From a bacterium (lineage in GTDB: Bacteria; JAJRZV01): a DNA stretch of 64,000 nt. The position numbers and the translations under genes are program-made. Positions within the stretch are counted from its first letter, which is position 1. Each line of letters begins with the position of its first letter. The notes beneath the pieces are model-generated. The model was not told the origin of the DNA and did no database searches. It saw nothing but the letters and a program-made list of their open reading frames with translations. Where the stretch lies: NCBI GenBank assembly GCA_024275095.1, contig JAJRZV010000050.1, positions 1,603 through 65,602 on the forward strand, given 5' to 3'. Shown one piece after another: positions 13,213-16,594 of this stretch.

Positions 13213-13749
13213 ATGCGTCATCGAAAGGGATACAAAAAACTGGGAAGACCCACCCAGCATCGAATGATGATGTTTCGGAATATGGTAACATCCCTTATTC
13301 TCCAGGAGCGCATTGTGACAACAGTTGCCAAGGCCAAGGAAGCGCGCAAATTTGCCGACAAAATGATTACCCTTGCTAAAGACGGCTCACTGGAGTCACG
13401 TCGCCGGGCCCATGCTTTTCTCATGCGTAAAGACGCGGTGCGTAAACTTTTTGATGAACTTGCTGAAAGATATAAGGAAAGAAACGGTGGCTACACCAGG
13501 GTTATTCGACTGGGATGGCGAAGAGGAGACGGGGCAGAACAGGCGATCCTTGAGCTGGTTGACAGGGTTGAAAAGCCCAAAAAGAAAGAGGAGAAGCCAG
13601 AAAAGAAAACTCCCAGGAAGACGAAGGTTAAAGCAAAAGCTAAGGAAAAGAAAGCAGAGGTAAAACCTGAAGAAGAGAAAAAACCTCGCGAGAGCGAGGA
13701 GAAGAAGCGGCGTCGCTGGAGATGGTTCTTTAAGAAGAAGGGCACGTAA
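13213..13749 (+). CDS. rplQ: 50S ribosomal protein L17 with ~60-aa Lys/Glu-rich C-terminal tail
   Basis: 178 aa; L17 core MRHRKGYKKLGRPTQHR... followed by KPKKKEEKPEKKTPRKTKVKAKAKEKKAEVKPEEEKKPRESEEKKRRRWRWFFKKKGT. Confidence 0.9.
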   Translation: MRHRKGYKKLGRPTQHRMMMFRNMVTSLILQERIVTTVAKAKEARKFADKMITLAKDGSLESRRRAHAFLMRKDAVRKLFDELAERYKERNGGYTRVIRLGWRRGDGAEQAILELVDRVEKPKKKEEKPEKKTPRKTKVKAKAKEKKAEVKPEEEKKPRESEEKKRRRWRWFFKKKGT

Positions 13750-14853
13750 GGATTTGACTAGACTTTTTGTACACTTTTGAAAAGTACCTCCGGGATCTGG
13801 TCTCATGTATGAAAGCCTCCCATGATGTCAAGAAATAATTCGTTCAAGGTTTTTCTTAAGGGACTGTTATCACCTCTATATTTTGTTTCGGTGAATCACT
13901 TTTTGGCTCGTATGCCATATTCACGGCAATACATGTATGCGTCCTTAGAAGGACAAGAGCATTTTATGCGGGGGAGCTTCCCAATCATTTATCGGGTTAA
14001 AAAACGAGTTTCTAAAGGCAAATAAAAGTGCATTTTTTACCCATCAAGACCTCGGGCATGCTCCGCCGGAGAAATTATATCTCATAAACCTTTCAATATC
14101 ATAAGGAGATTTTTCCTTAAGCACGAAGAAGGAAGCTTTAACAAGTTCATGAGCGAGTGCGAGGGAGGCTTTTGCGTATTCTTTGGCTTTTTCATATTTT
14201 CATAAGAGTTTTTTGCATTGGCCCGGAAAAAAGCGAAACATTTTCTCTGAAAAAATATGAGAGACCTTCTTCTCATGTGTACATCTCCTGGATAGATGTT
14301 TTACATCCTGTCACACCTGAGTCAAAGCTTATTTTCCCTGTTCACTGTGAAGAGATTTAGTGAGATAAATCTCAGCCGGAGTTATGAGCCCAGATGATGA
14401 GCAGGGTTTTCGCCGATTAAACCCTGGAGAACCGTTCCCGGTGATACTGAATACCTCCTCGCTGCTTCTTCCACCGATAGCTTTCTTTTTAAAACACAAG
14501 CACGATCTCAAGTTTCTGCTCCAACGGTATTTCTGCTCTCCTGCCCGTGGCTCACTTCCTCCTTTGAAACTGTTTTTATTTTATCCCTGGCGGGCCATGA
14601 ACCTGCTCCGAAAGTCTCACTTATCAAATGTTCCGGTTTAGGTGAGGCAATACATCCGGCAATGTGTGAGTGGCGTGGGTCGTTGAGCATCCGGGAATGA
14701 ACGGAAACCATTGTAAGGCAGATGCCCAGTTGTAAGTAGTGACGGAGGATTTTTTGTACTTTTTCGAAAAACAGGAAGAAGTGACGCATTGCGTTGTCTC
14801 CTGAGGTTTTTATCTGGTAGTATAAAAACAACTTTTTGCGCGGGGGGTAACTT

Positions 14854-16086
14854 ATGGTTGTGGTGAGTGCAGAAGAGGCAATAGAAGAAATACGCAAAGG
14901 TAATATGGTGATTCTTGTTGACGACGAGGACCGTGAAAATGAAGGTGACCTCTGCATTGCTGCAGAAAAGGTGACACCTGAGGTTATAAATTTTATGGCC
15001 AAGTATGGCCGAGGTCTTATCTGCTTGGCCCTTACGGAAGAACGTTGCCGGGAGCTGGACCTCAAGCCAATGGTTACGGATAACACTGCTCCATTTCAGA
15101 CAGCCTTTACTGTATCGATAGATGCAAGGGAAGGCACCACCACCGGAATTTCCGCTTATGATCGCGCTCTCACCATTAAAAAAGCAGTGGATCCGAATGC
15201 CAGACCTTCGGATTTTGTACGGCCGGGTCACGTTTTTCCACTTATGGCCAGGAAAGGGGGTGTGCTGGTTCGGGCAGGTCAGACGGAAGGGTCTGTAGAT
15301 CTCGCAAGGCTTGCTGGCCTCACTCCCGCTGCGGTGATATGCGAGATTATGAAAGATGACGGCACCATGGCTCGCATGCCGGATCTGGAGAAATTTGCAA
15401 AAGGGCACGGGCTGAAGATTGTTACTATTGAAGAGATTATTCGCTATCGTCTGAAAACGGAAAAATTTGTACGTCGCGTGGTGGTATCGCGACTTCCCAC
15501 CTCAGATTACGGAGAATTCACCGTGATTGCGTATGAAAACGACATTGATACTTCCGTACACGTGGCCTTGGTGAAGGGAGAGGTTCGTGAAGATGAGCCG
15601 GTACTTGTACGCGTTCATTCTGAATGTCTTACCGGGGATGTTTTCGGCTCGTCGCGTTGTGATTGCGGCCCTCAACTGCGCAGGGCTATGGAACTTATCG
15701 CGGAGGAAGGTAAGGGTGTTCTTCTTTACCTTCGCCAGGAAGGCAGAGGCATCGGACTTGTAAACAAACTCAAGGCCTATAATCTCCAGGATGAGGGTCT
15801 GGATACAGTGGAGGCTAACGAAAGGCTCGGTTTTCCTCCTGACCTGCGGGATTACGGTATCGGTGCCCAGATTCTCGTGGATGTGGGAGTGAGAAAGATG
15901 AAGCTCATGACCAACAACCCGCGCAAGATCGTGGGACTGGAAGGATATGGGTTGACAGTGGTGGAGCGGGTTCCCTTGGAGGTATGTCCCACGGAAGAGA
16001 ACATGAAGTATATAATTGCAAAGAAGGAGAAACTTGGTCATCTTATAGATATTGAAAGCCTGAAGAAAAAGGCTTCCAAAAAATGA
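14854..16086 (+). CDS. ribBA: bifunctional 3,4-dihydroxy-2-butanone-4-phosphate synthase / GTP cyclohydrolase II
   Basis: 410 aa; DHBP synthase N-half ([14 protein letters not shown]) and GTP cyclohydrolase II C-half ([18 protein letters not shown]). Confidence 0.95.
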
Positions 16087-16096
16087 GGAGGTTGCG

Positions 16097-16594
16097 GTGA
16101 AAGGAGTGAACATCATAGAAGGTGGTTTTGATGCACGCGGCCTGAAGTTTTGCATTATTTCCAGCCGCTTCAATCATTTTGTCACAGACAGGCTGGTGGA
16201 GGGCGCGCTCGATGCGATTGTAAGACACGGGGGGAGGATAGAAGATGTGGATGTTGTACTTGTTCCCGGCTCGCTGGAGTTGCCTCTTGCTGCAAAGAAA
16301 GCTGCCCTGAGCGGTCGCTACGATGCAGTGGTGGCACTGGGAGCAGTGATCCGTGGTGATACGCCCCATTTCGAATACGTGGCGTCCCAGGCAGCAAAAG
16401 GGATAGCGCAGACGGCCCTGGATACAGGGGTTCCCGTGATATTTGGTGTTATCACGGCTGACGATGTCCAGCAGGCCATTGAGCGTGCAGGCACCAAGGC
16501 AGGCAACAAGGGATTCACGGCTGCAATGAATGCCATCGAAATGGCCAACGTAATGAAAAAGCTGAATACACGTAGAACAAAGAAAGGGAATTAA
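16097..16594 (+). CDS. ribH: 6,7-dimethyl-8-ribityllumazine synthase
   Basis: 165 aa, KFCIISSRFNHFVTDRLVEGALDAI... typical lumazine synthase. Confidence 0.95.
   Translation: MKGVNIIEGGFDARGLKFCIISSRFNHFVTDRLVEGALDAIVRHGGRIEDVDVVLVPGSLELPLAAKKAALSGRYDAVVALGAVIRGDTPHFEYVASQAAKGIAQTALDTGVPVIFGVITADDVQQAIERAGTKAGNKGFTAAMNAIEMANVMKKLNTRRTKKGN

Follow-up and report, generated by a model that had tools for sequence, protein, structure and literature searches.

A decayed IS3-family insertion sequence and an AT-rich spacer in the ORF-free gap between rplQ and ribBA

Introduction

What occupies the unusually long stretch between rplQ and ribBA in this bacterial contig? In the 64-kb piece of DNA that we analysed (the whole stretch, hereafter the window), 1104 nt separate the two genes, as compared with a median intergenic distance of 30 nt between ORFs with a positive coding score. 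A sequence-only reading of the locus had remarked on about 1.1 kb without a credible ORF in otherwise tightly packed surroundings, and had offered a structured non-coding RNA, a divergent riboswitch or leader, or a decayed gene as its possible content. Here, we report that the gap holds no riboswitch, known RNA family or host gene. An internally deleted relic of an IS3-family insertion sequence makes up 40% of it (441 of 1104 nt), and the remainder is AT-rich spacer, which is an ordinary finding. It is very probable that the whole gap is a non-functional spacer around a dead mobile element. The features of the locus are listed in Table 1.

Table 1. Positions in the window of the features in and around the gap between rplQ and ribBA.
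Feature	Position	Strand	Description or basis
rplQ	13213-13749		Ribosomal_L17, Pfam E = 2.6e-40
ORF-free gap	13750-14853	.	Between rplQ stop (13749) and ribBA start (14854)
AT-rich spacer	13750-14213	.	464 nt, about 39% G+C; matches nothing searched
Direct repeat, copy 1	13761-13783	+	23 nt, GACTTTTTGTACACTTTTGAAAA
IS3-family insertion-sequence relic	14214-14654	-	441 nt, internally deleted, inactivated; blastn against L090 and L089
Right terminal inverted repeat (IRR)	14214-14243	-	Element end ...CCGGGCCAATGCA / ...GCCAATGCA; sequence alignment
orfB C-terminal remnant	14282-14421	-	Codons 260-305; tblastn, alignment
Junction of the internal deletion (about 1.0 kb)	14422-14432	-	orfA codon ~41 fused to orfB codon ~259
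orfA remnant	14430-14548	-	HTH, codons 1-40; tblastn, alignment
Left terminal inverted repeat (IRL)	14626-14654	-	TGTATTGCCTCACCTAAACCGGAACATTT; sequence alignment
199 nt upstream of ribBA	14655-14853	+	Presumed promoter and short leader; no Rfam or protein match
Direct repeat, copy 2	14748-14770	+	GATTTTTTGTACTTTTTCGAAAA; 19/23 identical to copy 1, spacing 987 nt
ribBA	14854-16086		Pfam DHBP_synthase and GTP_cyclohydro2

Results

Coding signal and composition

ORFs were scored with a third-order, 3-periodic Markov model for which the long ORFs of the window itself served as the training set. The longest ORFs of the gap (85, 67, 67, 64 and 60 aa) all scored negative, at -7 to -19 bits, as compared with +43 bits for rplQ and +127 bits for ribBA. 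When segments of 120 nt were scored, the interiors of rplQ and ribBA gave +10 to +17 bits, and values in the gap were negative or near zero in all six frames. Nowhere else in the 64 kb is there a real ORF-free stretch of this length; note that the other listed gaps of more than 400 nt were products of the overlap filter and are occupied by ORFs of at least 100 aa. These values bear out what the sequence-only reading had said of missing ORFs and packed surroundings, and its two remarks on composition were equally accurate. Specifically, the G+C content of the first half, described as AT-rich, is 39.4% (13750-14389) against 47.5% for the whole window, and the + strand of the second half, described as pyrimidine-rich, is 61% pyrimidine at 14390-14640. 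Both GC skew and AT skew become negative at 14400-14600. The + strand is rich in pyrimidines there because the IS3-family relic sits on the minus strand.

Riboswitch and RNA-gene signatures

The gap resembles an FMN riboswitch (RFN element, RF00050) in genomic position only, directly upstream of riboflavin biosynthesis genes, and differs from it in having no covariance-model match at any threshold tried. A cmscan search of the whole window with Rfam 15 returned neither RF00050 nor any other family at the gathering score, and no FMN element was found in 13600-15000 at E ≤ 10 with permissive filters. Two weak matches in the latter search, to the Dictyostelium snoRNA DdR6 and to NEAT1_2, concern eukaryotic families and are at chance level. 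ARAGORN detected no tRNA or tmRNA. In addition, FMN elements and all other Rfam matches were absent from 14 of the 14 loci of RibBA relatives that were scanned (up to 6 kb of flank on each side), so that among these relatives, too, ribBA does not as a rule have an FMN riboswitch beside it. The 199 nt adjoining ribBA fold like shuffled sequences (z = +0.98 to -0.86, + strand), and past them lies the IS relic in the opposite orientation. The proposal of a cis-regulatory leader for ribBA hidden in the gap, be it a divergent FMN riboswitch or another type, has only its position in its favor; given these results, we attach next to no probability to it.

The structured non-coding RNA envisaged earlier found no positive evidence. 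Folding z-scores for 32 segments of 140 nt across the gap ranged from +1.3 to -2.6, which is not evidence of structured RNA. One could nevertheless read the AT-rich 464 nt after rplQ as encoding a novel structured RNA, with the minus strand as the best candidate, since that strand folds with z = -2.25 (1 of 100 shuffles was as stable; the + strand gave -0.36), local segments reach -2.3 to -2.6, and a sigma-70-like site matching 10 of 12 positions at 14102-14074 is directed the same way. However, these z-scores are modest given 32 segments, and the most stable 201 nt of this part gave -1.9 only. Promoter-like and terminator-like sites were not commoner than in shuffled sequences, with 1 promoter-like site found against 2.1 expected. 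Furthermore, the AT-rich segment has no Rfam match and no homologous sequence in anything searched, hence no covariation support. We therefore regard a novel RNA in this segment as very unlikely.

Identification of an IS3-family relic

The decayed gene proposed from the sequence was correct for 441 of the 1104 nt, as the relic of a mobile element and not of a host gene; the other 60% of the gap is spacer that matches nothing searched. The sequence-only reading had held that a BLASTX match would make the region a pseudogene, and a search of this type did reveal a transposase pseudogene in the 441-nt part. On the minus strand, a peptide read across one frameshift (18 residues on one side and LKRKLSVEEAARRYSVSPGTV on the other) forms a helix-turn-helix (HTH) motif. 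Pfam gave sub-threshold HTH matches only for this peptide. In a search of 5.8 billion proteins, the reconstructed peptide matched two 100-aa proteins, one with 78% identity (E = 2.2e-10) and the other with 71% (E = 4e-7); their annotations are HTH_Tnp_1, HTH_28 and DUF1153. One of them (P0123) is encoded on the metagenome contig L090, where the gene immediately after it specifies a 307-aa protein that carries HTH_21, rve and rve_3 domains. L090 carries an intact element made up of this 100-aa HTH protein (OrfA) and the 307-aa rve protein (OrfB).

The intact L090 element is a remote member of the IS3 family because its OrfB (Pfam rve and rve_3) scores 162 bits against the NCBIfam model NF033516 for IS3 family transposases (cut-off 160), its OrfA (Pfam HTH_28 and HTH_Tnp_1) aligns with the 82 positions at the N-terminal end of that model, and the relatives of OrfB annotated on plasmids are IS3-family transposases (<33% identity). 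As in known IS3-family elements such as IS911, IS150 and IS2, an HTH OrfA is followed by a rve/DDE OrfB; the OrfB identity to annotated plasmid transposases sets this lineage apart as remote from the named elements. What is new here is limited to this remote IS3-family lineage and its deletion derivative. In the IS3 family, orfA and orfB are joined by a programmed -1 frameshift at an A-rich slippery site. In L090, the orfB frame opens right at a run of eight A residues (641-648). As assembled, however, orfB lies in the +1 and not in the -1 phase, reflecting either an unusual frameshift or an error in homopolymer length. The general structure of IS3-family elements has been described previously (PMC5771124, PMC11708052), including the presence of inverted repeats (PMC5771124).

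Anatomy and decay of the relic

When the intact L090 element was compared with the window by blastn, L090 positions 215-274 matched 14654-14595, positions 328-485 matched 14589-14433 (E = 1e-25), and positions 1522-1699 matched 14393-14214 (E = 1e-32). Global DNA alignment to L090 gave 77.2% over 228 nt for the left part and 75.8% over 211 nt for the right part. A second contig, L089, matched the relic at 81% over 162 nt in blastn (E = 2e-39). Similarity starts exactly at TGTATTGCC in three independent copies (the window, L090 and copy 2 of L089) and stops at ...GGCCAA(T/G)GCA in the window and L090; the element is therefore delimited as given in Table 1, on the minus strand. Its termini are TG...CA, and the arms of IRL and IRR are complementary, imperfect and about 29 nt long. 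Imperfect terminal inverted repeats that end in 5'-TG...CA-3' belong to the IS3 family in ISfinder descriptions, and the element ends share this likeness.

Between these termini, little of the two genes is left. In tblastn with P0122, the orfA remnant gave 75% identity over aa 2-21 and, in another frame, 77% over aa 19-40. Its start codon was altered from ATG to ACG (14548-14546), and a T4A5 run has lost 1 nt after 14497, which brings a TAA into frame at 14491-14489. The equivalent of L090 positions from about 490 to 1490 is absent from the window, which leaves the relic with no DDE (rve) core, no frameshift region and nothing of orfA beyond codon ~41. What follows the junction matched the L090 OrfB at residues 260-284 (14421-14347, 56%) and 288-305 (14335-14282, 72%), with E = 1e-6; these matches, too, fall in two frames, and a small insertion near 14340-14350 breaks the frame. 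Relative to L090, the leader of the relic also has a deletion of about 51 nt. The relic cannot encode a transposase because the catalytic core is gone, the start codon is mutated and two small indels break the frame. An active IS3-family member needs an intact DDE domain, and insertion in this family duplicates a short target of 3-5 bp. In contrast, the window copy is frameshifted, has lost the catalytic core, most of orfA and the start codon, and shows no visible target duplication; it is a relic and not an active member of the family.

With regard to the target site, the sequences flanking the relic are GGA and AAA in element orientation. As no target-site duplication of 3-5 bp flanks the relic, a clean insertion in situ is not demonstrated. 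The missing duplication fits decay, an adjacent deletion or recombination between IS copies, and proves none of them. Degeneration, recombination between IS copies and adjacent deletion are the usual causes of such a loss, and IS150, a member of the IS3 family, often gives adjacent deletions (PMC11708052). No further copy of the relic occurs elsewhere in the 64-kb window, and neither the IS end nor OrfB has a copy on the viral contigs searched.

The intact L090 element also suggests how the core may have been lost. A short direct repeat (ACAYCGGTGG-like; copies ATACATCGGTGG and TTACACGTGG) is present at both of its break points, ACATCGGTGG (about 490) and ACACGTGG (about 1485). Slippage or microhomology recombination between these two short repeats would have produced the internal deletion.

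A second copy with the same deletion junction

L089, which derives from a different metagenome, holds a copy in which ...VSPKTM is fused to YYNSQR...LKTPARVY, and this junction equals that of the window relic to within a few nucleotides. Positions 1-560 of L089 contain a head-to-head pair of copies of the same IS; one of them has an intact orfA and cuts off the deleted copy at its left end. Two copies with a shared junction reflect either non-autonomous spread or recurrent deletion at microhomology, and n = 2 cannot decide between them.

The first of these accounts would make the 441-nt element a non-autonomous, MITE-like derivative that was deleted once, was mobilised in trans by intact copies and reached the present locus already deleted. 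Like MITEs, the relic is short, keeps both terminal inverted repeats and lacks a transposase, and the recurrence of its junction in another metagenome agrees with such an origin. However, only two instances were found, the direct repeat at the break points lets the same deletion recur independently, and the L089 copy has itself been shortened, by truncation and by a further deletion. An active MITE family is defined by multi-copy status within a genome and by target-site duplications. The present element differs in that it has one further copy with the same junction, on L089, no other copy in the 64-kb window, and no target duplication; a recurrent microhomology deletion is an equally good account of the shared junction. 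We consider the MITE-like origin possible but unlikely.

The remaining spacer and a 23-nt direct repeat

The 464-nt and 199-nt segments on either side of the relic resemble nothing searched. Pfam gave no match at E ≤ 10 in any + frame of the 13741-14390 part of the gap, six-frame pseudo-proteins of both segments had no match at E ≤ 10 among 5.8 billion proteins, and neither segment matched the IS itself or any of the 82 loci L001-L082. Plasmid DNA gave no match to the 464-nt spacer. The 199-nt segment contains a weak putative promoter of ribBA, noticed by eye (TTGTCT-N18-TGgTAGTAT at 14795-14824), which agrees with 8 of 12 hexamer positions, is below the scan threshold and would leave a leader of about 25 nt.

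Several candidates in the spacer were rejected. A second transposase (rve) relic, suspected by eye on the + strand at 13800-14200, had no Pfam match at E ≤ 10, even as a stitched peptide, and its Smith-Waterman scores against L089 and L090 were at shuffle level. The longest stop-free stretch, 13813-14025 (70 codons, holding a 67-aa ORF), had a sole match in an exhaustive HMMER search, P0124, which proved to be an adapter-concatemer artefact. This 500-aa "protein" consists of nine tandem 53-aa units with a translated Nextera adapter (CLLYTS), and its score sums the repeats. Joining the two flanks of the relic, as if an interrupted gene could be restored, gave no convincing ORF.

The best direct repeat in the gap is the 23-nt pair given in Table 1, with the pattern GAYTTTTTGTAC..GAAAA and an A/T palindrome inside each copy. 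Only 2 of 200 dinucleotide shuffles reached 19/23. The repeat occurs nowhere else in the 64 kb, it brackets nearly the whole gap, and an IS3 insertion does not account for it. It may be the duplicated target or the att site of a larger lost element. In the fuller form of this idea, 13784-14747 (964 nt) would be the stump of an element integrated site-specifically after rplQ, with the repeats as attL and attR and the IS relic as cargo or a later arrival. The rarity of such a repeat in shuffles, its uniqueness and the shared palindrome speak for this, but no integrase or other cargo relic was found in any frame, and the repeat itself is T/A-rich and of low complexity. We judge an integrated element of this kind decidedly improbable. 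Likewise, it is doubtful that the locus represents either an IS3-derived family of mobilisable mini-elements with a fixed orfA/orfB junction or a stump of about 964 nt left after rplQ by a site-specific element that split the riboflavin genes from their usual partners.

Synteny of the riboflavin genes

We next turn to the gene order around the gap. Of the 10 RibBA relatives examined (65-70% identity), 9 have ribE (Lum_binding) immediately before ribBA, and in L009 ribD precedes ribE-ribBA. In the present locus, ribBA and ribH stand alone (14854-16594); neither ribE nor ribD occurs anywhere in the 64-kb window, and the gap contains no remnant of them. On the other side, the nearest RplQ relative on a long contig has ksgA (RrnaAD) after rplQ, and not ribBA. 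As ribE is missing upstream of ribBA and the neighbour of rplQ is different in the relative, synteny is broken at either end of the gap. It is probably the scar of an old rearrangement, possibly mediated by the IS, a reading that is drawn from synteny in relatives about 65-70% identical in RibBA. The collections searched contain no close relative with this locus; GTDB genomes matched at about 45% identity in RpoA and metagenomes at 70% or less in RibBA.

A plausible course of events can be outlined. The IS element, or a rearrangement via this element or a partner copy, would have parted ribBA-ribH from ribD-ribE and placed ribBA-ribH after the ribosomal alpha operon. In its present position, ribBA would be transcribed from a promoter of its own within the final ~200 nt of the gap, with a leader too short for a riboswitch.

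IS sequences are classic points of mis-joining in assemblies, and the adjacency of rplQ and ribBA could in principle be a chimera, joined at a repeat in this metagenome-assembled contig. In favor of this, the three short contigs of the closest RplQ relatives all break off 22-81 nt after rplQ; the relatives with 89% and 69% identity in RplQ are on such contigs, of about 1 kb. However, the relic is single and diverged with unique flanks, and both sides of the gap have the same G+C content and score well under one codon model. A chimera is exceedingly unlikely.

Several points follow for annotation and for the biology of this lineage. The appropriate annotation for the gap is transposase pseudogene, or IS3-family relic, together with spacer; labels such as candidate riboswitch or RNA gene should be avoided. 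Beside the ribosomal alpha operon, the relic flags what is likely an old breakpoint of rearrangement. In a poorly sampled lineage, the locus provides a case in which ribBA-ribH are apart from ribD-ribE with no adjoining FMN riboswitch; therefore, control of riboflavin synthesis must work differently or lie elsewhere.

The contigs of the three closest RplQ relatives (L083, L084 and L085) stop 22-81 nt after the rplQ stop codon, and these ends may hint at a repeat or variable region after rplQ there too. A resemblance between the 81 nt after rplQ in L083 and the upstream end of ribBA, which would imply an empty site, was rejected since 131 of 300 shuffles scored as well. Finally, the C-terminus of RplQ (13570-13749) carries a Lys/Glu-rich extension of L17 of about 60 aa that ends in RRRWRWFFKKKGT. 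The aromatic motif at this end, RRW[RYF][WS]FF[KR]K, is absent from more distant L17 proteins with charged tails and is kept in the four closest homologues (P0001-P0004).
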